Both the position numbers and the translations under genes were made by a program. The notes beneath the pieces are model-generated. The model made no database searches, had not been told where the DNA came from, and was given only the letters and a program-made list of their open reading frames with translations. A stretch of 64,000 nt of DNA from an uncultured Dehalococcoidales bacterium (GTDB lineage Bacteria > Chloroflexota > Dehalococcoidia > Dehalococcoidales > E44-bin46): contig CAZVIZ010000001.1 in assembly GCA_964627215.1 (NCBI GenBank), positions 145,395-209,394 of the forward strand. Reading direction: 5' to 3'. The number at the start of each line of letters is the position of its first letter. The stretch's first letter is position 1. Positions 10,587 to 41,098 of this stretch are shown here, piece after piece.

Positions 10587-11559
10587 CGACTCCTTCCAGC
10601 GCCCCATCAACTACCTGCGCATATCGGTTACTGACCGCTGTAACCTGCGTTGTATCTATTGCATGCCTGACGGCGGCGTGCCGCAGGTCTCCCACGAGGA
10701 TATCCTCACCTATGAGGAGATAGCCGCCGTGGCCGAGGCCGCCAGCGAGGTTGGCATAGATAAAGTGCGGCTCACTGGCGGCGAGCCACTGGTCAGGCTA
10801 AACCTGAGCGCCCTGGTCAAGATGCTGGCTCGCATTAAGAGAATAGACGATATCTCCCTATCTACCAACGGCACCCTGCTCAAAAACTATGCTGGGGAGC
10901 TTAAGGCGGCGGGGCTTAAACGGGTTAATATAAGCCTGGATACCCTTAAGCCGGATAGGTTCCGTGCCATTACCCGCAGCGAGCACGAGTTGGGCGATGT
11001 CCTCGCCGGACTGGAGGCCGCTCATGCGGCAGGGCTTACGCCGGTGAAGATAAACGTGGTGGTTATCCGCGGCAAAAACGATGACGAGATAGCTGACTTT
11101 GCTCTAAAGACCATTCATGAGGGCTGGCACGTCCGCTTTATAGAGCTTATGCCTGTAAAGGGCTTGGGTTTGAGCGAGCTTGACTTCGTGCCTGTGGCGG
11201 AGATGAGGAAACGGCTTGAACCGCTGGGACCTCTTGAACCCTGCCTGCCCAGTGCGGGCAACGGCCCGGCTAAGTACCTCCGCTTCACTGGATCCGCCGG
11301 AAGTATAGGCTTCATCACGCCGGTCAGCGAGCACTTCTGCTTTAAATGCAACCGCTTGCGTTTAACCGCTGACGGTAGGCTGCGCCCCTGTCTGCTGGCC
11401 GACGATGAGGTTGACCTCAGGCGTCCATTGCGCCAGGGGGCATCGGCGGCGGAGATTAAGCAGCTTGTAGAGCAGGCGGCGGCGGCTAAGCCGCGACGGC
11501 ATGGTCTGGATAATGGCTGCATGCCCCAGGGCGGCCGTTTCTCTGAGACAGGAGGCTGA
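10573..11559 (+). CDS. moaA: GTP 3',8-cyclase (radical SAM, molybdopterin biosynthesis)
   Basis: INYLRISVTDRCNLRCIYCMP motif. The internal ATG at 10573 is preferred over the track start at 10525. Confidence 0.9.
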   Translation: MTGLSDSFQRPINYLRISVTDRCNLRCIYCMPDGGVPQVSHEDILTYEEIAAVAEAASEVGIDKVRLTGGEPLVRLNLSALVKMLARIKRIDDISLSTNGTLLKNYAGELKAAGLKRVNISLDTLKPDRFRAITRSEHELGDVLAGLEAAHAAGLTPVKINVVVIRGKNDDEIADFALKTIHEGWHVRFIELMPVKGLGLSELDFVPVAEMRKRLEPLGPLEPCLPSAGNGPAKYLRFTGSAGSIGFITPVSEHFCFKCNRLRLTADGRLRPCLLADDEVDLRRPLRQGASAAEIKQLVEQAAAAKPRRHGLDNGCMPQGGRFSETGG

Positions 11560-12104: not shown

Positions 12105-13247
12105 ATGAAGCTTACTTGTCTTCAGGAGAACTTGAACCGCGGACTGGGCATAGTGGGGAGGGCGGTGGCCACCAGGGCCACGTTGCCTATAACCAGCAAT
12201 GTCCTTCTATCGGCGGAGGCGTCCCAGCTCAAGCTGGCGGCTACCAATCTGGAGATGGCAATAAGCTGTCGGGTAGGGGCCAAGGTGGAGAAAGAGGGTT
12301 CAATCACCGTACCTGCCCGGCTGCTCATAGAGTTCGTGAACTCCCTGCCCAACGATAAAGTGGATATCCAACTGCTTCCCCAGACCAAAACCCTGGAGCT
12401 TAAGTGCGCCCGCTTCGAGGCGCGTATAAGCGGGGTGGATGCCAAGGACTTTCCGCCTATACCGGAGGTGGCCCAGGGGGTTCCTACTAAGGCACAGGTA
12501 GATGCCCTTAGGCAGGGTATCAACCAGGTGGTCTTCGCCGCCGCTACCGAGGAGTCTCGCCCCGTACTTACCGGCGTGGACGCCGAGTTTGATGGCGAGA
12601 ATGTAACCATGGCCGCTGCCGATGGCTTCCGCCTGGCGGTGTATAAATTGCCCCTGGCCAAGAAGGTTACCCAGAAGACCCAGGTGATTATCCCATCTCG
12701 CACCCTCGCCGAGCTGGGGCGGCTGATCACCGACGAGGAGTCGGTGGATATTATGGTGGATCCCGATAAGAGCCAGATACTGTTCAGCCTTAAGGGCAAG
12801 GCGCAGAGCATAGCCCTGGTGTCGCAGCTGGTCCAGGGTAGCTTCCCCAACTATGGCCAGCTTATACCGCAGGATTGTAAGACTAAGGCAGTGGTGGACA
12901 CCACGTCCTTCTTAAGGGCGGCCAAGACTGCCTCTATCTTCGCCCGTGATGGCAGCGGCATCGTCCGCCTGGTAATGGCCCCCGGCGTTGAGATGACGCC
13001 TGGCAGAATGACCGTATCTGCCCGCTCCGAGGAGATAGGCGACGATGTGGGCGAGATAGACGCCGTGGTGGATGGCGAGGAGTCTAAGATAGCCTTTAAC
13101 GGCAAGTACCTGATAGATGTCTTGAACGTGCTCCGGGAGGAGCAGGTTTCACTGGAGACAACCAACCCCTCTAGCCCTGGTGTTATTCGCCCTGTGGGCA
13201 CGGACAACTACATCCATGTTGTAATGCCCATGTTCGTTCAGTGGTGA
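12105..13247 (+). CDS. dnaN: DNA polymerase III beta sliding clamp
   Basis: 380 aa: MKLTCLQENLNRGL...LPITSNVLL...MPMFVQW C-terminus. No dnaA is adjacent. Confidence 0.9.
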   Translation: MKLTCLQENLNRGLGIVGRAVATRATLPITSNVLLSAEASQLKLAATNLEMAISCRVGAKVEKEGSITVPARLLIEFVNSLPNDKVDIQLLPQTKTLELKCARFEARISGVDAKDFPPIPEVAQGVPTKAQVDALRQGINQVVFAAATEESRPVLTGVDAEFDGENVTMAAADGFRLAVYKLPLAKKVTQKTQVIIPSRTLAELGRLITDEESVDIMVDPDKSQILFSLKGKAQSIALVSQLVQGSFPNYGQLIPQDCKTKAVVDTTSFLRAAKTASIFARDGSGIVRLVMAPGVEMTPGRMTVSARSEEIGDDVGEIDAVVDGEESKIAFNGKYLIDVLNVLREEQVSLETTNPSSPGVIRPVGTDNYIHVVMPMFVQW

Positions 13248-13254
13248 GTAAGCT
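13224..13254 (+). repeat. direct repeat copy 1 (native dnaN 3' end plus stop), att-like
   Basis: ATGCCCATGTTCGTTCAGTGGTGAGTAAGCT recurs at 16951-16975 (24/25) and 17144-17169 (22/26). Confidence 0.8.
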
Positions 13255-13338: not shown

Positions 13339-14121
13339 TTAATCCGGAATTACTATTATCGGTTTCCCATTCGGTCCGATTACAGAATTTCCCTCTCCAT
13401 CTAAGACAGCCCGACCTAGTATCGGGGCTCCATCTTCATCTACAAGAGGATTGCCCGTTGGGTTCATCACAGGTTGTGGCTCGCCGAATTGTGTATCATC
13501 ACGGAATGTTTCCGATGGTGATAGCTCATCATCTTGCATCTCAGAGCGTGGTATTCCTCCTGGTGGAGTCGGATCCTGGGTTGGGTCATCTTGCCTATCA
13601 GGGCGAGGAGTATACGCGAATCTTTCATTGTCGGGTCCAGACGTGAATCCTGGACCGAGTTCAAGAAAATACGTCACGGGGGGGGATATCCATCCTTCGT
13701 CAGTATCAGTAAAATATATCGGCTCGCCTTCAGGATACTCACTATAATCGAGGACCGGTTCTCCCGTTTCATAAAAGAGTTGTCGACCCAGCACCGGGTA
13801 TCCATCTGCGGTTACAATAATATCACCATTGAAATCTCTAACATTCTGCACATCGCCTAATTCTTGACCCTCAGGGACTTCTATTTGCAAGAAAGAATCA
13901 CTATACTTATAATCATCATACTCATAACGATCATCATCTCCGCCATTACCGCCATCATCTCCGCCATGGTCACCATCTCCGCCATTACCGCCATCATCTC
14001 CGCCATGGTCACCACCTCCGCCATTACCGCCATCACCAGGAATATAGGCCAATGTTGGGGAAGACAAGGCTATAATAAAGATCAATGATAGTATTAGCGA
14101 AAAAGCTAATTTCATTTTCAT
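13339..14121 (-). CDS. secreted acidic Gly/Asp-repeat protein, function unknown
   Basis: 260 aa. It has an N-terminal signal peptide (MKMKLAFSLILSLIFIIALSSPTLA), then GDHGGDDGGNGGD repeats. The gene is AT-rich. Confidence 0.6.
   Translation of the reverse strand: MKMKLAFSLILSLIFIIALSSPTLAYIPGDGGNGGGGDHGGDDGGNGGDGDHGGDDGGNGGDDDRYEYDDYKYSDSFLQIEVPEGQELGDVQNVRDFNGDIIVTADGYPVLGRQLFYETGEPVLDYSEYPEGEPIYFTDTDEGWISPPVTYFLELGPGFTSGPDNERFAYTPRPDRQDDPTQDPTPPGGIPRSEMQDDELSPSETFRDDTQFGEPQPVMNPTGNPLVDEDGAPILGRAVLDGEGNSVIGPNGKPIIVIPD
13935..14037. repeat. 39-bp in-frame tandem repeat (2 full units plus a partial one)
   Basis: CATCTCCGCCATTACCGCCATCATCTCCGCCATGGTCAC occurs at 13935-13973 and identically at 13974-14012, with a partial variant to 14037. 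It encodes GDHGGDDGGNGGD on the minus strand. Confidence 0.9.
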
Positions 14122-16169: not shown

Positions 16170-16496
16170 TTAGCCGAAAGTCACCACCTTGTCCGACTCG
16201 TCAATCATCTCCACCAATTGCGACATGGTAGAGATGGGACATACCCCAGCCTCCTTGTTCCTGGATTTGAGACAGGTGCCGCAGGCCAAAAGCCTGCCTT
16301 CGTGATTCAGGAACTGTGTTAGACCCTCAGCAACATTGAACTTCTTGTCCTTGACGTTCTCTATCTCCACACCGCTCCCCAAGAGAAACACGCTGGTTTC
16401 ATGACCATCAGCCAGAGCTTTGTTGCCCAAGCGCAGTGCATTCCAGGCGGTCTCAGGGTCGTTGCTGTTTAAGATGATGCCAAGCTTCATTACCAT
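16170..16496 (-). CDS. DsrE/DsrF-like sulfur-relay family protein
   Basis: 108 aa: MKLGIILNSNDPETAWNALRLGN...LLACGTCLK, matching the DsrE-like fold pattern. Confidence 0.55.
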   Translation of the reverse strand: MVMKLGIILNSNDPETAWNALRLGNKALADGHETSVFLLGSGVEIENVKDKKFNVAEGLTQFLNHEGRLLACGTCLKSRNKEAGVCPISTMSQLVEMIDESDKVVTFG

Positions 16497-16877: not shown

Positions 16878-16950
16878 ATACTATATAATTATAATAGCTG
16901 ACACCTTTTTCCATGTCAACCCCCGTGGTCGGATATTTTGGGGGTACATA

Positions 16951-16975
16951 ATGTTCGTCCAGTGGTGAGTAAGCT
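16951..16975 (+). repeat. direct repeat copy 2 of the dnaN 3' end
   Basis: ATGTTCGTCCAGTGGTGAGTAAGCT matches dnaN 13230-13254 at 24/25 positions. The single difference is a synonymous third-codon position. Confidence 0.8.
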
Positions 16976-17143
16976 TTAGCGAGCTCGCCGATGCCTCCGT
17001 TTGAGCGGTCTCCAGCGGAATTGCACCCTGGGACCGATTTTCTCTGGCGTGGCTTTCCCTCGCTTGTGCCTTCGGCCGAATTCCGATATAATAGCTTGTG
17101 TGTCCGGTGGTCGGGTTGTACTTACCCGTTTGAATTAACAAAC

Positions 17144-17169
17144 ATGCCTATGTTTGTCCACTGGTGAGT
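17144..17169 (+). repeat. direct repeat copy 3 of the dnaN 3' end (more diverged)
   Basis: ATGCCTATGTTTGTCCACTGGTGAGT matches 13224-13249 at 22/26 positions and reads MPMFVHW*. All four differences fall on third codon positions. Confidence 0.7.
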
Positions 17170-17852
17170 TGTTTTAAGGGTATCGGTTAAGGCGGGCTGG
17201 TGGAGGCGGGGATCTGATGTGGGTGGCCAGGGAAGGGGCGCATAGGATAATCAAGCCCCATCAGGCTGAGCTTCTGTCTGACGACGTGAAAAAAACCTGC
17301 GTGAGATTGTGGAAACTGCCAGGAAAGAGCTTGTATGAGCTTTGATAGGGCCGATGTTTGGGGAACCTGGTGTCGGCGGCATTCAAGAGTTACTGTGAGT
17401 TGAAGGAAATTCAGCTGATTGTGAGCATAATAGGGTCATCGTGTATGTCAGGGTGATATCCGGCCAGTTGGATAGAATCTTGGTCATGGATGGTGGCCGT
17501 AGTGCATTTGATATAGCGGGACAGATTCTCACCAGCGAGATTCAAGACATGGTGCGCATTAACCACGTGGTCTGGGTGCGGACCAGCGATTCGTTGGAAT
17601 CTGTCATGAACCTTGAGAGCGAGGTATGCATCGGCGCGCAGGACGAATCCCCGGCATCTACAAGGGATACCCTTATACATGTAACAGACTTGATAGAGGA
17701 GTTTGACCTGGAGTATAGGAGGTTGAAGGCGGGGTGGGGGATTATGAAAGTGCGGATTTAGTGGCGTTGCAAGATGTGCCGGGATTATAACTTGGATATC
17801 AATTGTCTCCGGCGTGGCCTGCCAATTTGTAGCCTAAGATTGTGGCCGACTC

Positions 17853-20741: not shown

Positions 20742-22451
20742 TTAACGGAAGAAATAAAGCTGAGACATAGGCAGCGACTTAGCTGGCTTTACCGTTGCTC
20801 GTTCCCCGTCCACATAAACGCTGTATGACTCTGGGTCGATTTCGATTTCGCCCATCCAGTCATTATACAGCATATCACGTTTGGACAGTGTTCGCACATC
20901 GTGGACCGGCATCAGGGTCTGATGGGACCCAAGCCTGTCGGCCAAGCCGTCATCAATGGCTGCCTGAGGCACGAAGGAATAGCTTAACTGTGACGGATTG
21001 CTACCAAAGGCTGCGTACTGTGGGCGAATCTTGGTCGGCTGGGTGGTCATTAGGGAACCATTGGGTTCTCCCATATCGGCCCTGGAAATGTACCCGCCCT
21101 TTAATATGTGCTGTGGCTTCACGAAGATCATGTCAGGCCGCCAGACAACGAGGTCGGCGAGCTTTCCTGGTTCTATGGAGCCAATATACTGGGAGACACC
21201 AGTGGCGATACAAGGGTTGATGGTAACCTTGGACAAGTATCGCTTGATGCGGAAGTTGTCGTTATTAGGGCTGTCTTCAGGAAGCTTGCCATAACGCACC
21301 TTGTTGACAGCAGCAAGCTGGAAACTCTTCAGCGCGCTCTCACCGGCACGCCCCATGCCCTGGTTGTCCGCCGTCATCATGCTGATAGCACCGATGTCGT
21401 GCAAAACATCCTCAGCCCTCATAGTTTCCGCACGTGCTCGCCCATGGGCGAATGCTATATCTGTCGGCACATCTACGTTGAGATTGTGGCACGTAATCAG
21501 CATGCCGAGAGACTCATCCCAGGTATTGATACAGAACGGATTAGCACAACTGGTCGAGCTGGTCAATAAGTTGGGCTCACCGCAGCACTTCAGGAGGTCT
21601 GGAGCATGTCCCCCTCCGGTACCTTCAACATGATACATATGCATCACTCGTCCGTTGATGGTTTCAAGCGTGCGTTCCATGTATCCGGCTTCATTAAGGG
21701 TGTCAGTGTGCAGCATTATTGGTATATCGTACTCGTCGCCAATCTGCAGACAGACATCGGTTACTGCGTGGGTTGCGCCCCAATCCTCATGAATCTTAAA
21801 GCCCGTTGCACCATTCAGAACCTGTTCTCTTAGTACACCTTTGCTTATGGCATTGCCCTTGCCCCAGTTAGCGAAGTTGACAGGGAAATCGGCCATAGCC
21901 TGCAGCATCATGCGCAAGTTGTTTTGGCCTGGGCACTCAATACCAACGGTGTGAGGGCCCGTGCCGCCGCCGAATAGACTGGTAAAACCAGCGTTCAAGA
22001 ATTCGTATACTGTCTGGACGGAATCGAAGTGGACATGGGCGTCCACTAGTCCTGGAGTGACGATCTTGCCTTCGACTGACAGGATATCAGTGTTGGCTGA
22101 AACAACCAGCCCTGGGGTGATATCCATGGTGTCTGGATTGCCTGCTTTGCCCACGCCAACGAACTTGCCATCCCGAATGCCTATATCGCCTTTAACTATG
22201 CCCTGGACTGGGTCCATGATGACGGCATTGGTTATTACGAAGTCAAGAGCGCCATCGTTATATGACCATTTGCCCGAATGGCCCGCGCCATCACGGATGG
22301 TCTTGCCGGGGCCGAACACCATCTCGTCACCATAAGTACCATAATCGTGTTCAATCTCGGCAACTAGGCCTGTGTCCGCCAAGTGAATGCGATCACCCTT
22401 CGTCGGCCCATACTGTATCGCATAATCAGAACGCGGAATCTTTACGCTCAT
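20742..22451 (-). CDS. ureC: urease alpha subunit
   Basis: 569 aa: VDAHVHF...MLHTDTLNE...HVEGTGGGHAPD...MGRAGE active-site motifs. Confidence 0.95.
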   Translation of the reverse strand: MSVKIPRSDYAIQYGPTKGDRIHLADTGLVAEIEHDYGTYGDEMVFGPGKTIRDGAGHSGKWSYNDGALDFVITNAVIMDPVQGIVKGDIGIRDGKFVGVGKAGNPDTMDITPGLVVSANTDILSVEGKIVTPGLVDAHVHFDSVQTVYEFLNAGFTSLFGGGTGPHTVGIECPGQNNLRMMLQAMADFPVNFANWGKGNAISKGVLREQVLNGATGFKIHEDWGATHAVTDVCLQIGDEYDIPIMLHTDTLNEAGYMERTLETINGRVMHMYHVEGTGGGHAPDLLKCCGEPNLLTSSTSCANPFCINTWDESLGMLITCHNLNVDVPTDIAFAHGRARAETMRAEDVLHDIGAISMMTADNQGMGRAGESALKSFQLAAVNKVRYGKLPEDSPNNDNFRIKRYLSKVTINPCIATGVSQYIGSIEPGKLADLVVWRPDMIFVKPQHILKGGYISRADMGEPNGSLMTTQPTKIRPQYAAFGSNPSQLSYSFVPQAAIDDGLADRLGSHQTLMPVHDVRTLSKRDMLYNDWMGEIEIDPESYSVYVDGERATVKPAKSLPMSQLYFFR

Positions 22452-23500: not shown

Positions 23501-24931
23501 CTACTCTAGCCAAGGAGGCAATACAAACTCCGTTCCTACCTCTTCAATATATTGATGTCGGGGTTGATACCCGTAGTGTTCTAACATATATTCTTCTGTG
23601 GGGTAGTCATATAAGAAGAGTACTATATCCTGCGGGCCGTCTGATGTGACCTGTATCTGGCTGAAGGTCATTGAGGACCCGTAATCTGGTCCCTCCGGAC
23701 GGTTTTCCTTGTCCCACTCCGGCATACCCTCTCTCCACATTGTACGGTCAGTACCGCTCAGCGGCGATATGTTAGTCCCGCTCGGGCCATAAGTCATGCC
23801 TTTCATGTGAGTGTCCATGATGTGATCAATAATTCCGCGATAATCCTTCACATCACCGACAGCTTCAACAGCTTCCGCCCAGAACATAACCTGATCATAG
23901 TTTGAATAAGCCATGCAGAAGCCAGGCCCCTCGCCAAATCTGGCCGTATATCTTTCCCTGTAATCGTACGCCTTGTCGGTTGGATACGGCCCTATGGTGG
24001 TTTGCCAAAGCAAGCCCACAGCTTGTTCCCCCAGCATTTTCCGCAATTCAGGTGTAGTCGGAGCATACTGGATAACAATCAGCGAATCGGTCGGGTCTTC
24101 AAGGAATTGCCTTACGAAAGCGGCTGATTCGGGAACAAACGCGGTGTTGAAAAAGATGAACCCTGGGTTTGCCTCCCTGATCTTGGCTAGCTGTATCCCA
24201 AATTCCGGAACACCACTGCCGACGTCCATGCTCCTGAATGGGTGAACTTCATCTATCACTAATTCCCACTCGGGGTCCGCTTCTATCAAATCTCTTAGAA
24301 CGCCCGAAATCTCCAAGTTGTAGGTTACCTGTGCCGTTAAGATTGCTGCCGTTTTGCTTGGATAATCATATTCCTCCGCAATCTTCTCAGTCATAATCTC
24401 ATAAACATTTGGGCCATACATTACTGCGGTGTCGTCCAGCTGCAATATGTTCCAGTACTTATCTGGGTTCGACGCCCACATTTCAGCAAACAGTTCTGTA
24501 GTACCCACATGAAGATAGGGAATGCCGCCGGTCTCCTCCGCGGCGAAAATATCCATGAAGGCGGGATCGAAGCCATAACCCGGGAAGAAGGCATCTACCT
24601 CCTTTTGTAGCAGGTAGTCACGAGCCGCGATCTGGTCCTGCGCCCCCCAGTTCACCACATCACGGATAAAGATTTCTACGCGTCTCCCCAGTAACCCACC
24701 CCTAGCGTTTATCTCTTCAACCGCCATGGTCATTCCGCGTTCCATCTCTATCGCATCAGGCCCTGGCACCCCGCTGAGAGGCAAGGGCGCGCCTATTCTT
24801 ATCGGTTCTATCTCCTCTGGTGTTGGAGTTGGGGCAGCACAGCCATTTAGCAATGGCACACTTGTTAGCAGTACCGCTGCTAAGCTTATACCGACAATCG
24901 CTTTAAACTTTAACAATTTAGATTTACCCAT
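23501..24931 (-). CDS. ABC transporter substrate-binding lipoprotein, Liv/Urt (HAAT) type, paralog 1
   Basis: Lipobox LLNGC. It is very similar to the 28515-29993 product (shared blocks such as DPAFMDIFAAEETGGIPYLH and ELFAEMWASNPDKYWNILQ). The internal ATG at 24931 avoids overlap with the ATPase gene. Confidence 0.75.
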   Translation of the reverse strand: MGKSKLLKFKAIVGISLAAVLLTSVPLLNGCAAPTPTPEEIEPIRIGAPLPLSGVPGPDAIEMERGMTMAVEEINARGGLLGRRVEIFIRDVVNWGAQDQIAARDYLLQKEVDAFFPGYGFDPAFMDIFAAEETGGIPYLHVGTTELFAEMWASNPDKYWNILQLDDTAVMYGPNVYEIMTEKIAEEYDYPSKTAAILTAQVTYNLEISGVLRDLIEADPEWELVIDEVHPFRSMDVGSGVPEFGIQLAKIREANPGFIFFNTAFVPESAAFVRQFLEDPTDSLIVIQYAPTTPELRKMLGEQAVGLLWQTTIGPYPTDKAYDYRERYTARFGEGPGFCMAYSNYDQVMFWAEAVEAVGDVKDYRGIIDHIMDTHMKGMTYGPSGTNISPLSGTDRTMWREGMPEWDKENRPEGPDYGSSMTFSQIQVTSDGPQDIVLFLYDYPTEEYMLEHYGYQPRHQYIEEVGTEFVLPPWLE

Positions 24932-24932
24932 T

Positions 24933-25637
24933 TTATATCCCCAAGAACACGGCTTTGACATGCTCATTTTGCATGACCTCTTCCGTGGTCCCATGGAATA
25001 CTATCCGGCCGTCTTCTACCAAGTAGACCTTGTCTGTATATTCTGAGGCTTCGGTAATATCTTGCTCCACCATAAGCACGGTAATCCCGGTCTTATTGAT
25101 AGTGGCGATTGTCTTAAACACCTCTTCTCTAAGAAAGGGAGCTAAACCCAGTGATGGTTCGTCTATCGCCAGCAGTTTGGCGTTGGACATCAAACCTCGC
25201 CCGAGAGCCAGCATACGAGCCTCTCCACCGCTTAACTGCTCAGCCAGATGCGAAATCCGCTCTTTCAATCTTGGGAACATTTCGAGGACGTATTCGATAT
25301 TCTCAGCCATCTTAGCTCTAGCATGTACGTTATAGGCGCCCAATTCCAGATTATCCATGACGCTCATTTTCGGGAAAAGATGCCTGTCCTCGGCGATATA
25401 CACTAAACCCATCTCGACTAGCTTGAGAGCCCCCAGGTTAGTAATATCTTTTCCGTCAAAATTTATTGAGCCTGAGGTCGATGGATGTAGGCCGCAGATA
25501 GTCTTAAGCAGGGTGCTTTTACCATGACCATTCGGCCCGAAAACAACCACCAACTCACCCTCGGCTACCTCAAGAGAAATATCGTGTAATGCCCGGAATT
25601 GTCCGTAGTAACTATTCAGGTCTTTTACTTTAAGCAT
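24933..25637 (-). CDS. ABC transporter ATP-binding protein (LivF/UrtE-like)
   Basis: Walker A GPNGHGKST, signature LSGGE, Walker B LLAIDEP. Confidence 0.9.
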   Translation of the reverse strand: MLKVKDLNSYYGQFRALHDISLEVAEGELVVVFGPNGHGKSTLLKTICGLHPSTSGSINFDGKDITNLGALKLVEMGLVYIAEDRHLFPKMSVMDNLELGAYNVHARAKMAENIEYVLEMFPRLKERISHLAEQLSGGEARMLALGRGLMSNAKLLAIDEPSLGLAPFLREEVFKTIATINKTGITVLMVEQDITEASEYTDKVYLVEDGRIVFHGTTEEVMQNEHVKAVFLGI

Positions 25638-28514: not shown

Positions 28515-29993
28515 TTACTCCAGCCACGGAGGTAGCACGAATTCCGCCCCTACCTCGTCAAGATACTTGTGGAAGGGGTCGACCCCATAGTAAGCCTGCA
28601 TATACTCTTCTGTTGGCATGTCGTAGATGTAGGTTATGACATCTTGAGGACCATCGGAAGTCGCCTTTATCTGACTGAACGTCATGCTGGTTCCGACGTC
28701 CTTGCCTTCTGGCCTGTTTTCTTTATCCCACTCTGTCATACCGTTTCTCCATACTGTCCGATCGGTACCACTCAGAGGAGATACGTTAAGGCCAGCAGGA
28801 CCCTGTGTCATGCCTGCCATGATTACGCGGTCTTCAGTGCCGATAGAAGTGCGCATGAACTGATCGATAATGCCTTCGTAATCCTCTACATCACCGACAG
28901 CTTCGACAGCTTGAGCCCAGAACATGACTGCATCATGCACTGCGTAGGCTTGACAGAAGCCAGGTTCCTCGCCAAAGGTGTCTATATACCTCTCCCTATA
29001 ATCAAATACGGTCTTAGTTGGGGGAGGCCCTTCACTAGTTTGCCAAAGTATGCCGATAGACTGGTCGCCAAGCATCTTCCGGAACTCGACGTTGGATGGA
29101 CAGTAATGGACAACAACTAGTGAATCGGACGGGTTGCTCAGGAACTGTCTTACGAATGCTACCCCTTCAGGAACCACAACGGTGCTGAAGAAGATGAACC
29201 CTGGGTTGTGCTCTCTGATCTTGGATAGCTGAACCCCAAACTCCTGGGTGCCGAACGGGTGCTCTTCGTCTACTACCACTTCCCACTCGGGATCCGCGTT
29301 TATCAGATCCCTTAACCCGGCCGAAATCTCCTGATTATAGGTTATCTGTGATGTCAGGATTGCCACAGTTTTGTTGGGATACTCGTATTCGTTTGGAATT
29401 GCCCTGGTCATGACCTCGTAGACATTCGGGCTATACGTGATGGAGGTGTCGTCAATCTGCAGTATGTTCCAGTACTTGTCCGGATTCGACGCCCACATCT
29501 CCGCAAACAGCTCTGTGGTGCCGTAATGGAGATAGGGAATACCACCGGTCTCCTCTGCGGCGAAAATGTCCATGAAGGCGGGATCTAGTCCGTAACCCGG
29601 CAGGAACAGGTCTACATCCTTTGTAAGCAGGTAGTCGCGAGCCGCAACCTGATCCACCGCTCCCCAATCTACTACGTCAGCGGTGACGTATTCCACAGGC
29701 CTTCCCAGCAAGCCGCCCCTGGCATTGAGGTCCTCAACGCCCAGGCTAAGTCCGCGTTCTATCTCTACGGCATCAGATGCTGGTGCCCCAGTGATAGGCA
29801 AAGGTGCTCCGATTACTATCGGCTCTGGCGGTGCTTCGGTCGGCGGTGCCGTTTCGGTCGGCGGTGCCTCTTCGGTCGGCGGTGCTGCTTCCTGTTTTCC
29901 AGGCAAACAACCGCTAGTAAGAGGTACAATTATCGCCAGCGCTACTATTAGGCTGATGATAAACGCTTGTTTTAGTGCTAGTCTTCTCTTCAT
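28515..29993 (-). CDS. ABC transporter substrate-binding lipoprotein, Liv/Urt (HAAT) type, paralog 2
   Basis: Lipobox LTSGC followed by a Pro/Glu/Thr/Ala-rich linker. Paralog of 23501-24931. Confidence 0.75.
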   Translation of the reverse strand: MKRRLALKQAFIISLIVALAIIVPLTSGCLPGKQEAAPPTEEAPPTETAPPTEAPPEPIVIGAPLPITGAPASDAVEIERGLSLGVEDLNARGGLLGRPVEYVTADVVDWGAVDQVAARDYLLTKDVDLFLPGYGLDPAFMDIFAAEETGGIPYLHYGTTELFAEMWASNPDKYWNILQIDDTSITYSPNVYEVMTRAIPNEYEYPNKTVAILTSQITYNQEISAGLRDLINADPEWEVVVDEEHPFGTQEFGVQLSKIREHNPGFIFFSTVVVPEGVAFVRQFLSNPSDSLVVVHYCPSNVEFRKMLGDQSIGILWQTSEGPPPTKTVFDYRERYIDTFGEEPGFCQAYAVHDAVMFWAQAVEAVGDVEDYEGIIDQFMRTSIGTEDRVIMAGMTQGPAGLNVSPLSGTDRTVWRNGMTEWDKENRPEGKDVGTSMTFSQIKATSDGPQDVITYIYDMPTEEYMQAYYGVDPFHKYLDEVGAEFVLPPWLE

Positions 29994-30175
29994 CTAAACC
30001 CTCTAAAACCCCCTCTCAACTTCCTAATTTTATAACACACATCAATTATTACTCACTTTATATATGTTTTGTTCACTCCATATAGTGTCTCCTTTCTATT
30101 TTCTTTCTATTACGCAAAATTCCGGAATTCATTGCCTCGAATTCTCGGCTAAAAAGTCTATTCATTCTGTTTACC

Positions 30176-30206
30176 GTTGTTGGGGGGAGCGCCACCCCCC
30201 AACAAC
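30176..30206. other. perfect 12-bp inverted repeat GTTGTTGGGGGG-7 nt-CCCCCCAACAAC
   Basis: Read directly. It is followed by A7 on the plus strand and preceded by T7 on the minus strand. Confidence 0.5.
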
Positions 30207-30502
30207 AAAAAAACTAGAAGGAGGGATTGGGTTTGCTGATACGGTTCGGTTGCTCAACCGTAATCACCCAAGGCCTCCAGCTATTGGGTCAACTATATTT
30301 GTGTTATGGCTTTTTAGCATACCGAAGGACTATCCTTCTGCTTGCTTGTTTTTCCCTCCAGGACGCACCAAATCCGTCCGCCAAGCGTTTTGCCTCACAA
30401 AACGACCCTGAGACACACCGCAACGCAGCATTTGGATTGACCCCAGAACTTCCGAGTTTATTCACCATTCGCTTAAGCGAGATTAATCAATTACTGAAAT
30501 CT

Positions 30503-30752
30503 ATCACTCAGCAACAATCCTGTCAACCTAATGTCTAATAATGTCAACCCCTTATATGGGGGAAAACGAGCCCTAAAATCAGCTAAATTGTTTGAAATTT
30601 ATCACTCAGCAACAATCCTGTCAACCTAATGTCTAATAATGTCAACCCCTTATATGGGGGAAAACGAGCCCTAAAATCAGCTAAATTGTTTGAAATTTAT
30701 CACTTAATAATATTCTTGTCAAGTCTTCTGTTAATAATGCCAACCCCATAAT
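30503..30752. repeat. 98-bp tandem repeat: two identical units plus a degenerate third
   Basis: 30503-30600 and 30601-30698 are identical as read. 30699-30752 is a diverged partial unit. Each unit contains TGTCAAC twice (TTGACA on the minus strand). Confidence 0.9.
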
Positions 30753-30816
30753 GGCGTGGGTGGCAGTTTGTCAATGGGCTGGGGTGGTAAGTGTGAGCTT
30801 AGCTTACGTCCTTTGA

Positions 30817-31563
30817 CCTGGCTTTGCGGCCTGTCTCCGGGAGCATGAAGGCGAAACCTATGCTGGTCCCAGCCAGGGCAGTAAGGATGACGATATTCCG
30901 TCCGACATAAAGCCCGCCTGCGCCAGTTGCGAGCACTTCGTGCCCTTTAATGCCGATATGACCGTTGCCCTGGCGGGTGACCAGGATCTGGATTCCCAGT
31001 GCCTGGTGTATCTGAACACCGAGAAGGGTGAGGAGTTCGCCGATGGCCTGGACGCCGAGCGCGCCCAGGGTGAGGTGGAGTCGGAGGTTGTAAAGGGGCT
31101 TATAGAAAAGAGAGCGGCTCGTAAGAAGGATCTCTTTGACGAGCTCGGCAGTGATGTCTTCGACATACAGAAGGTCTTTGCTAAGTGTATCGGCTGTCAT
31201 GCTTGTAGCAAGGCTTGCCCCATATGTTATTGCCATGTATGCTACTTTGACTCCGGTGGCGATGACCACGATATGTCTTACTACGAGAAGAAGATGGAGA
31301 AAACAGGGTGTGCCGCCGTGTTGCCTGACCCCTTGTCATATCAGATGGTCAGGCTGTCGCATGTCAGTGCCTCCTGTGTGGGGTGCGGCCTGTGCGCCGA
31401 CGTGTGTCCTGTGGGTATCCCTCTGTGGGCCGTCTCACTGAGGGCCGGGGAATCGGTCCAGAAGGCGTTTGAATACGTGCCCGGCAGGGACCAGGAGGAG
31501 GGACTCCCCCTGGTGACCTTCAAGCCGGACGAATTCGACATGGCGGAGGTAAGCAAGGGCTGA
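30817..31563 (+). pseudogene. 5'-truncated 4Fe-4S protein gene (AsrA/HydB-like Fe-S subunit)
   Basis: CIGCHACSKACPICYCHVCYF and CVGCGLCADVCP cluster motifs. The reading frame stays open and protein-like (ACASCEHFVPFNAD...) back to a stop at 30814 with no ATG, GTG or TTG before 30940. It abuts the AT-rich region. Confidence 0.5.
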
Positions 31564-31689: not shown

Positions 31690-31717
31690 TTTAATATAGA
31701 TTTAACACGACTTTAAT
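31690..31717 (+). promoter_or_regulatory. Pho-box-like direct repeats upstream of pstS
   Basis: TTTAAT, TTTAAC and TTTAAT start at 31690, 31701 and 31712 (11-bp period). The middle unit contains TTAACA, which matches the B. subtilis PhoP half-site TT(A/T/C)ACA. Confidence 0.35.
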
Positions 31718-39029: not shown

Positions 39030-39719
39030 ATGGACAGTAAAAAAATCCTCCTCGTGGAAGACGACCGTAACCTGCTGCATGTCCTGGACTATAATCTGAC
39101 CAGAGAGGGCTATAACGTTATTACGGCTGTGGATGGCGTGGCGGCTCTGGATATGGCCAGGGAGCAGCGGCCGGTACTGATTATCCTGGACCTCATGTTG
39201 CCCGGCCTGGACGGCTTTGAAGTATGCCGCATCCTGCGTAAGGAGATGAGCACCCCCATACTGATGCTCACTGCCAAGGACGAGGAGGTGGATAAGATAG
39301 TTGGCCTGGAGATAGGGGCCGACGACTACATGACCAAGCCTTTCAGCATGCGGGAGCTTCTTGCCCGCGTGCGAGCCATGCTCCGCCGCGTGGGCATGAT
39401 TGAGCCTTCCCGTGAGGATATGCCCCTTTGCTTGGGCAACCTTGAGATAGACACCTCGCGCCGCATCGTCACCGTGGACGGGCGCTCACTTAAGATGACC
39501 GCCAAGGAGTTCGACGTGCTTGCCTTCTTGGCCCGTAATAAGGGCATCGTCTTCAGCCGCCAGCGGCTGTTAGAGAAGGTGTGGGGCTACGAGTATGCCG
39601 GCAATACCCGCACCGTGGATGTCCACATTCGCCGCCTCAGGCAGAAGATAGAGGCCAGCCCTGGCCGGCCGAAGCGCCTGCTCACTGTGCGGGGGGTGGG
39701 ATACAAGCTGGAGGAATGA
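39030..39719 (+). CDS. OmpR/PhoB-family response regulator
   Basis: The receiver domain LLVEDD...DLMLPGLDG and the winged-helix C-terminus [14 protein letters not shown]...TVRGVGYKL are both present. Confidence 0.9.
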
Positions 39720-41098
39720 GTTTGGTGCTAGGTGTTCGGTGGCGTATAGCTCTGCCTATAATGGCGCTCATTTTGGGCAGCCTGGGCGGCCTGGGATACT
39801 ATATCCTGGGTTATCTCAGGGACGCTCAGGCCACCGATGGGGTGGTGAGGGCGGTGGGGATAGCCATTGCCATTGCGGCCTCGCTGGCGGTGTGGGTTGT
39901 GCTGTATATAACCAGGATGATCAACCGTCCCCTGCATGAGATAACCACCGCAGCGCGCAAGATATCCCTGGGTGACTTCAGCCAGCGCCTGCCTGTGGAG
40001 AGGCAGGACGGTTTGGGGGAGCTGGCCCGTACCTTTAATGAGATGTCCCAGAGTATGAAGTATACCCTAACCGCCATATCCGAGGAGCGCGGCAAACTTT
40101 CTACCATACTGGCCAACCTGGTGGATGGCGTGATCATGGTGGACTGGGAGGGGATGGTAGCCCTGGCCAACCCGGCGGCGGAGAACATATTTGGCTTCAA
40201 AGAGAAGTCCGCCATCGGCCGTAATGTGATAGAGGTTGTCCACGACCACGAGGTGGACGAGGTGCTCAAGGCTTCAATTGAAAAGCGCAGGGAGCAGACG
40301 GCTCAGTTTGAGTCTGGGGCCACGGGGCGCTTTCTGAGGGTTATTGTTCTGCCGCTTCTGGCCTATAATCCGGTGAGGATATTGATCCTGTTCCAGGACC
40401 TCACCGAGATGAGGTCCATGCAGACGATGCGGCGGGAGCTGGTGGGCAATATCTCCCACGAGCTCAGGACGCCCCTCACTACCATAAAGGCCATAGTGGA
40501 GACCCTTAACGACGGCGTGCTGGACGATAAGGACGTGGCTCGGGACTTTCTCCTCAAGGTGGACAGTGAGGTGGACCGCATGACGCAGATAGTGGCTGAG
40601 CTGACCGAGCTCTCCCGCATAGAGAGCGGGGAGGTGAAGCTGGACCTGGTGGAGGTGGATATGGGCGCGCTCGCCGACGACGTGGTGGTGCGCTTAAATC
40701 CGCAGGCGGAGAGGCGCAGCATAGTCCTCCACAGCGACATCTCCGACGCCATGCCGCCCGTCAAGGTGGATCGTGAGCGCATACGCGAGGTGCTGGTGAA
40801 CCTGATTCATAATGCCATCAAATTCACCCCGGAGGGGGGACGGGTGAGCGTATCGGCTAAGGAGAAGAGCAAGAAACTGGTGGTCAGCGTATCCGATAAC
40901 GGCATGGGCATAGATGAGGCCGACCTGCCCCATGTCTTCGAGCGCTTCTATAAGGCCGATAAGGCGCGGTCGGAGGATGGGACCGGAATGGGGCTGGCCA
41001 TCGCAAAGCATATCGTCCAGGCGCACGGCGGCGATATCTGTGTGGAAAGCGAGAAGGGCAAAGGCGCCGTCTTCAGCTTCAGCCTGCCGCTCAAGTAG
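39716..41098 (+). CDS. sensor histidine kinase (HAMP-PAS-HisKA-HATPase, PhoR-like)
   Basis: H-box [12 protein letters not shown]-box LIHNAIKF, G-boxes DNGMGI and [11 protein letters not shown] at 39716 overlaps the response regulator stop (ATGA). Confidence 0.85.

Follow-up and report, generated by a model that had tools for sequence, protein, structure and literature searches.

Background

Several promoters of the same orientation, each with its own -35 and -10 elements, may be stacked upstream of one operon, as in the tandem sigma70 promoters rrn P1/P2 and gal P1/P2. Intergenic minisatellites, some of them in promoter regions, are represented by the MIRU-VNTR loci of Mycobacterium tuberculosis. 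In Aspergillus fumigatus the promoter tandem repeats TR34 and TR46 of cyp51A raise expression. Short direct repeats are also found in plasmid iterons, which are about 17-22 bp long and have an adjacent rep gene, in lambda-type arm sites (P'1-P'3), and in Pho boxes and OmpR-family operators, where two or more direct half-sites at 10-11 bp phasing replace a poor -35. We know of no information on gene regulation in the uncultured lineage from which the DNA analysed here derives.

Within the window (the whole 64-kb stretch of DNA that was analysed), a 98-bp tandem array is found upstream of a minus-strand ABC-transporter/urease operon. The duplication is genuine and local but fairly ordinary, and its kind is known: a promoter-region tandem duplication or intergenic VNTR. 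Like the rrn and gal promoters, its promoter-like sites share one orientation upstream of one operon, and they agree with the housekeeping consensus in hexamers, 17-bp spacer and extended -10 TG. Unlike them, they are predicted sites that are copies of a 98-bp cassette and lie 505-701 nt from the start codon. With MIRU-VNTR the array shares non-coding head-to-tail units in the 40-100 bp range, a degenerate edge copy and an expected origin by slippage or unequal recombination; however, it is a single locus as searched, whereas MIRUs form a dispersed, many-locus family with demonstrated polymorphism. As in TR34/TR46, a segment with key recognition sites of a putative promoter is tandemly duplicated upstream of a regulated gene. 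TR34 and TR46 are eukaryotic and duplicate only transcription-factor sites, whereas here the whole putative core promoter is duplicated, and the array is not known to confer a phenotype.

Short, helically phased direct repeats, AT-richness and a foreign-looking edge are reminiscent of iterons and arm sites, but the period is 98 bp rather than ~20 bp, there is no att core at the edge and neither a rep nor an integrase gene was present among the ORFs scanned in the adjoining block. The TGTCA-type half-sites every 10-11 bp, overlapping the -35, with pst genes and an OmpR-type regulator nearby, resemble Pho boxes and OmpR-family operators. In contrast to these, the -35 of the array is perfect, its middle half-site is unconserved and the repeat upstream of pstS has the form TTTAAY.

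Structure of the tandem array

The array and its units are as follows.

30495-30754: whole tandem array, period 98, 2.65 copies, 35% GC (TRF and repeat search)
30495-30592: unit 1, with one private substitution (C at 30501)
30593-30690: unit 2, 99% identical to unit 1
30691-30754: unit 3, partial and diverged (64 nt, with 16 mismatches in the first 57 nt)

TRF reported one array at this position (30495-30754; period 98, 2.7 copies, 90% matches, score 413), by far the strongest tandem array in the 64-kb window. Its copies stand head to tail and its unit is within the 10-100+ bp size range of a VNTR or minisatellite. The first-pass annotation had described two identical units followed by a degenerate third. 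In the phase used there, the two (30503-30600 and 30601-30698) are exactly identical, and they lie in an exact period-98 run of 105 nt (30502-30606 versus 30600-30704), making 30502-30704 perfectly periodic. In the phase used here, the sole mismatch between units 1 and 2 is C at 30501 versus T at 30599; this one difference in 98 nt supports the recent duplication that had been proposed. Homology of the third copy is clear, with an alignment score of 70 against 18.4 ± 3.7 for shuffled sequences, 0 of 500 of which reached 70. An additional unit-like stretch to the left of unit 1, suggested at the same time, is not significant and was dropped as an extra degenerate unit (score 18, below the shuffle mean of 21.4). 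A repeated peptide is ruled out by the period, since 98 cannot be divided by 3.

Short reads resolve perfect 98-bp repeats poorly, and the sequence comes from a metagenome-assembled contig; these points speak for a false or mis-counted duplication. However, an independent Logan assembly of SRR8146443 contains a contig (L013) that is 100% identical to the window from 30675 rightwards. Its start precedes, by precisely k-1 = 30 nt, the base where the unit-to-unit and unit-to-unit-3 continuations diverge. A de Bruijn assembler is expected to break in this way at a genuine repeat. The diverged third copy, furthermore, cannot arise as an artefact. An assembly artefact is hardly credible on this evidence, and an under-count of units is more likely than spurious extra ones. 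Given short-read assembly and the de Bruijn break at the repeat, the assembled copy number is a lower bound.

A second, coding tandem repeat of 39 bp (13931-14035, 2.7 copies, 96%) is present in the ORF at 13339-14121 (minus strand), which has no Pfam match.

Searches for the unit elsewhere

The array is the only locus of the unit within the 64-kb window and has no terminal inverted repeats, unlike dispersed repeats of the REP, MITE or Correia type. The generic dispersed repeat that the first-pass annotation had weighed against its own proposal is thus not what is seen in this window. It had also pointed to other genomes and plasmids as places in which to look for the unit, and no true match was found in the collections searched. 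The pattern TGTCAA-N9-TAATAATG-N-CAACCCC, which fits all three copies, returned only Bacteroidales clusters and two low-complexity matches from GTDB genomes, IMG/VR and JGI metagenomes, and blastn against plasmid and phage collections gave no match to the unit. No directly relevant paper was found in the literature.

The Bacteroidales matches are intergenic clusters, in rumen contigs, of 5 or 6 (A)CTGTCAAC (TGTCAAC) repeats 20-31 bp apart (L002, 7420-7560; L008, about 11050-11200; also L010 and L012). One stretch is 27/31 identical to the array core, but architecture and context differ. In L008, L010 and L012 the cluster comes directly after the same transposase 3'-end sequence, which in L008 belongs to an IS3-type orfA/orfB element, and in L002 it lies upstream of a small basic (THX-like) ORF. 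These clusters are probably unrelated to the array. An IS end, considered by analogy with L008, was rejected because the TGTCAAC cluster there is chromosomal DNA beside an IS3 insertion and not an IS terminus.

A structured RNA or riboswitch was likewise rejected. There was no Rfam match over the array, either at the gathering threshold or at E ≤ 5, and folding of the unit on both strands gave z of +0.3 to +1.1, which is no significant structure.

A rearrangement breakpoint and a low-GC block

The array forms the right end of a block (~13.2-30.75 kb) with 45-53% GC, compared with 55-61% outside. Fine-scale GC rises at ~30750, exactly at the end of copy 3, and a truncated gene follows.

30874-31563, plus strand: 5'-truncated FrhB/FdhB-like Fe-S gene, marking the right-hand breakpoint

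Only residues about 127-355 of this gene are left; homologues have 355-365 aa, and the first ~126 codons are gone. The GC step and the truncated gene bear out the earlier placing of the array at the right edge of an accessory region. Because the low-GC block meets the 5'-truncated gene there, the array, at the upstream end of the operon, sits directly on a rearrangement breakpoint. NCBI-type gene calling gives the truncated gene a 207-aa product from GTG 30940. It is followed on the right by a terminator-like hairpin and then by pstSCAB-phoU. In a relative (L004) the FrhB/FdhB-like gene ends a FlpD/DsrE/TusA/Hdr-like sulfur cluster, which is absent here; the window was searched for remnants of the hdr/sulfur cluster that lies upstream in the relative, and none came to light.

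The left end of the block is at the 3' end of dnaN (12105-13247). This 3' end occurs three times in direct orientation, at 13230-13254, 16951-16975 (the last 25 nt, 96%) and 17141-17174, the last of which still encodes MPMFVHW-stop. The copies look like the result of serial site-specific insertion of islands. In another relative (L005) the 3' end of dnaN is single-copy. Judged by its DnaN, the window belongs to an uncultured Dehalococcoidia-like bacterium: the closest match other than self has 83% identity, and matches with a name are from Dehalococcoidia MAGs. No other strain was found.

Such a setting raises the question of whether the array is a relic of the end of a mobile element, with arm-type integrase sites, transposase subterminal sites or iterons, as the first-pass annotation had offered as alternatives. 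The end of the array coincides with the GC step and breakpoint, the three dnaN-end copies on the left side of the block are a signature of site-specific insertion, and ATGTCAACCCC recurs ~30 nt left of the dnaN-end copy at 16951. However, this last occurrence, near 16914-16919, is the -35 region of the promoter of an ArsR-DsrE pair, and chance alone would give about 2-3 matches to an 11-mer in the window. The ORFs scanned at 13.2-31 kb include no integrase, transposase or rep gene. The dnaN-end copies are confined to 13230, 16951 and 17150, with none at the right edge, where scores of 13-16 are at the background level (12 ± 3). Neither an inverted partner cluster nor terminal inverted repeats are present. 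Part of the block may moreover be native, since dnaN is closely followed by an ABC-transporter operon in L005 too, with ATPases that are 62-68% identical. An origin from a mobile-element end is therefore very unlikely, and the iteron and arm-site alternatives find no backing here.

Two other candidates in this region were rejected. An oriC had been suggested by the nearby dnaN and a minimum of cumulative GC skew near 31 kb, but dnaN is preceded by moaA and moaC, not dnaA, and GC skew tracks gene orientation in the block. A supposed DsrE pseudogene remnant (30401-30427, an inverted match to 16437-16463) is not significant.

Promoter-like sites in all three copies

A consensus scan of the minus strand found one promoter-like site in each copy.

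30526-30498, minus strand: promoter-like site P1 (TTGACA-17-TAGATT with TG), whose predicted start near 30491 falls just beyond the array
30624-30596, minus strand: promoter-like site P2, TTGACA-17-TAAATT with TG
30722-30694, minus strand: promoter-like site P3 (TTGACA-17-TAAATT with TG) of the diverged unit 3

All three have a -35 matching sigma70 consensus at 6/6 positions (TTGACA), a -10 matching at 4/6, with A2 and T6 in place, and an upstream TG. Each site therefore agrees with consensus at 10/12 positions and has the optimal 17-bp spacer. In the phase that starts at 30495, each unit has the minus-strand sequence GGGGTTGACATTATTAGACATTAGG-TTGACA-(17 nt)-TAAATT-TCAAACAATTT, and the unit spans roughly -4 to -101 relative to such a promoter. 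TTGACA-17-TAAATT had already been recognised on the minus strand, where it was thought to arise across the unit junction. The sites are present, but they are not created by the junction, since each is wholly inside one unit in the natural phase. The distance of the array from the first gene, earlier put at 510-760 nt, becomes 505-701 nt when taken from the -10 elements to the ATG at 29993.

A scan of the whole window required a -35 with 5/6 or more matches to TTGACA, a spacer of 16-18 bp and a -10 of the form TAnnnT with 4/6 or more, and gave extra score for TG. Eleven sites reached the top score tier, and three of the 11 are those of the array, which backs at the sequence level the stacked promoters proposed at first reading. 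The other eight are all intergenic and lie 28-158 nt upstream of an ORF on the same strand. These ORFs encode a CNNM transporter, a peptidase M16, the ArsR-DsrE pair, a glutamine amidotransferase (GATase), CobA and an OmpR-type regulator; the remaining two are a 156-aa ORF and an unverified 108-aa ORF. As 8/8 of the other sites precede same-strand ORFs, canonical sigma70 promoters are in use here and this score level is predictive. The array sites differ from them in two respects. The -10 (TAAATT/TAGATT) has T at position 5, where 7/8 of the other sites have A and 1/8 has C, and the distance to the start codon is 505-701 nt as against 28-158 nt.

Further support for stacked promoters comes from the diverged third copy, which keeps every promoter position. 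Over 57 nt aligned with unit 2, copy 3 has 16 substitutions, none of which falls in the 14 positions of the -35, TG and -10 (hypergeometric P = 0.0046). The spacer of P3 has kept its length of 17, with 6/17 bases changed. A second block is also conserved.

30634-30649, minus strand: second conserved block, GGGGTTGACATTATTA, about -45 to -60 of P2 (repeat search)

The corresponding block is at 30536-30551 for P1 and at 30732-30747 for P3, the latter with one change (TTGGCA). Seen as TAATAATG-N-CAACCCC (minus strand GGGGTTGRCATTATTA, about -45 to -60), the block is kept in copy 3, and it is a candidate UP-element or activator site.

The reading we favour, to which we give about an even chance, is that the array may be a VNTR-like duplication of a promoter cassette, giving up to three stacked promoters that face the operon. 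A cassette of ~98 bp would have been duplicated head to tail at the upstream end of the minus-strand ABC-transporter/urease operon. An older duplication would have given copy 3, and recent slippage or unequal recombination the near-identical units 1 and 2. RNA polymerase would initiate at up to three stacked promoters, and transcripts would run leftwards through a structured leader of 500 nt into the operon. Duplication of the unit would have changed promoter dosage.

Putative leader and transporter/urease operon

The putative leader and the first gene of the operon are as follows.

29994-30494, minus strand: putative leader from P1 to the first gene, about 500 nt, hairpin-rich
28515-29993, minus strand: first operon gene, encoding a lipoprotein-type substrate-binding protein (SBP; Peripla_BP_6) with a weak UrtA-like match

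The first SBP gene is followed on the minus strand by genes for two permeases, two ATPases and a second SBP and then by the urease genes ureA, ureB, ureC, ureE, ureF, ureG and ureD, down to 17970. As no plus-strand gene on the right could supply read-through, the operon promoter must lie within 29994-30800. No canonical terminator was found between the array and the first gene in a consensus scan.

The putative leader contains a non-coding, hairpin-rich stretch at 30160-30491 (fold z of -3.35 on the minus and -4.18 on the plus strand) for which no Rfam family was matched. Candidate readings of this stretch are a leader, an attenuator and a palindromic relic. At 30176-30206 it includes a perfect GC stem of 12 bp. 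It is not a canonical terminator in either direction, as A7 follows on the plus strand and a U-tract is absent on the minus strand. Even without a U-tract, a hairpin of such predicted stability might stop or impede transcription. Closer to the gene, ~36 nt upstream of the SBP ATG, the minus strand has an extended -10 candidate at 30037-30027, which reads TGtTATAAA at 30037-30029 (or TAAAAT). No -35 match accompanies it, and the consensus scan did not pick it up; judged by this motif, it could be the working promoter of the operon.

The closest relative of the operon (L006) has an SBP that is 86% identical in amino acids and ~81% in nucleotides, but its upstream DNA is unrelated. The cassette is thus particular to this junction rather than conserved with the operon, and the idea of a conserved operon regulatory region was rejected. 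Another contig (L007) begins inside the first gene.

Counting against stacked promoters, then, are the distance of 505-701 nt, the T at position 5 of the -10, the proximal -10, the 12-bp GC hairpin and the unrelated upstream DNA of L006. Several of these would fit a neutral minisatellite, in which AT-rich junk at the rearrangement scar was duplicated by slippage or unequal crossing-over. The array is exactly at the breakpoint beside the truncated gene, it is unique, nothing homologous lies upstream of the closest relative's operon and the collections searched gave no match. On this view the operon would be driven from near 30030 by the proximal extended -10, the promoter-like matches being silent or incidental; the length of the would-be leader and the presence of a proximal candidate speak for it. 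However, substitutions that fall at random would not be expected to miss all 14 promoter positions of copy 3 (P = 0.0046), the second block is also kept there, and the eight other sites of equal quality are all just upstream of same-strand ORFs. Neutral duplication of junk appears somewhat unlikely in view of these points, and so, to the same degree, does a proximal promoter behind silent matches.

If the promoters of the duplicated cassette are active, the locus would be a clean natural case in which expression changed because an entire promoter cassette was duplicated where newly arranged DNA begins, with three start sites and a structured leader of 500 nt as candidates for nitrogen or urea control. 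If they are silent, the array would simply be a minisatellite on a rearrangement scar, and its main use would be as a strain marker and as a warning that assembled copy number may be too low. Each unit would comprise a full promoter and an upstream protein-binding block, and gain or loss of 98-bp units might act as a copy-number-variable promoter 'dial' that tunes a laterally acquired nitrogen-scavenging operon. We think this improbable. If true, contingency-locus-like regulation would reach as far as whole-promoter units, and this in an environmental phylum from which, to our knowledge, it has not been described.

The two SBPs of the operon (23501-24994 and 28515-29993) are paralogous, their DNA being 69-75% identical over 300-nt stretches. 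Both are far below the NCBIfam UrtA cut-offs (about 26-40 versus about 493-495 bits), so the transported substrate may not be urea itself. In the first SBP, the lipoprotein signal is followed by a Pro/Thr/Glu-rich linker that is encoded by an 18-bp repeat at 29827-29891. Within the urease genes, Rfam 5_ureB_sRNA, a Helicobacter antisense sRNA, matches 22000-22298 (plus strand) with 43.5 bits, just over the gathering score. The match is antisense to the 5' part of the gene for the urease alpha subunit (20742-22451) and is most likely conserved coding sequence rather than an sRNA gene.

Phased half-sites

TGTCAAC occurs twice in each full unit (at 30521, 30542, 30619 and 30640), as had been noted at first reading, and forms part of a trio of half-sites.

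30521-30548, plus strand: three direct half-sites, TGTCAAC/TGTCTAA/TGTCAAC, with 11- and 10-bp phasing

The trio is repeated at 30619-30646 and is degenerate at 30717-30744. On the plus strand of the unit, the half-sites are followed by a CCCC-N6-GGGGG mini-hairpin.

Winged-helix response regulators typically have sites with such phasing of 11 and 10 bp. The array might be a platform on which an OmpR/PhoB-type regulator, or a different multimeric DNA-binding protein, binds and controls the operon or a neighbour. Two sets of helically phased half-sites and a degenerate third would suit this, as would the TAATAATG-CAACCCC block kept in copy 3. An OmpR-family regulator, at 39030-39719, and a PAS histidine kinase are encoded within 39030-41098, the pst-phoU operon begins 1 kb to the right of the array, and similar TGTCAAC repeat clusters are found in intergenic DNA of rumen Bacteroidales. 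However, one of the half-sites is a perfect -35 hexamer, whereas activator-dependent promoters usually have no perfect -35. The middle half-site is not kept in copy 3, no regulator gene adjoins the array, the candidate Pho boxes before pstS are TTTAAY at 11-bp phasing rather than TGTCAA, and the Bacteroidales clusters are unlike the array in spacing and context. A regulator-binding platform is accordingly an unlikely explanation of the array, and duplication of a promoter cassette remains the preferred one.

The candidate Pho boxes upstream of pstS (31690-31717) read TTTAAT/TTTAAC/TTTAAT at 31690, 31701 and 31712, with exact 11-bp phasing. The OmpR-family regulator and its HAMP-PAS histidine kinase (39030-41098), a PhoB/PhoR-like pair, are encoded 3 kb beyond phoU.
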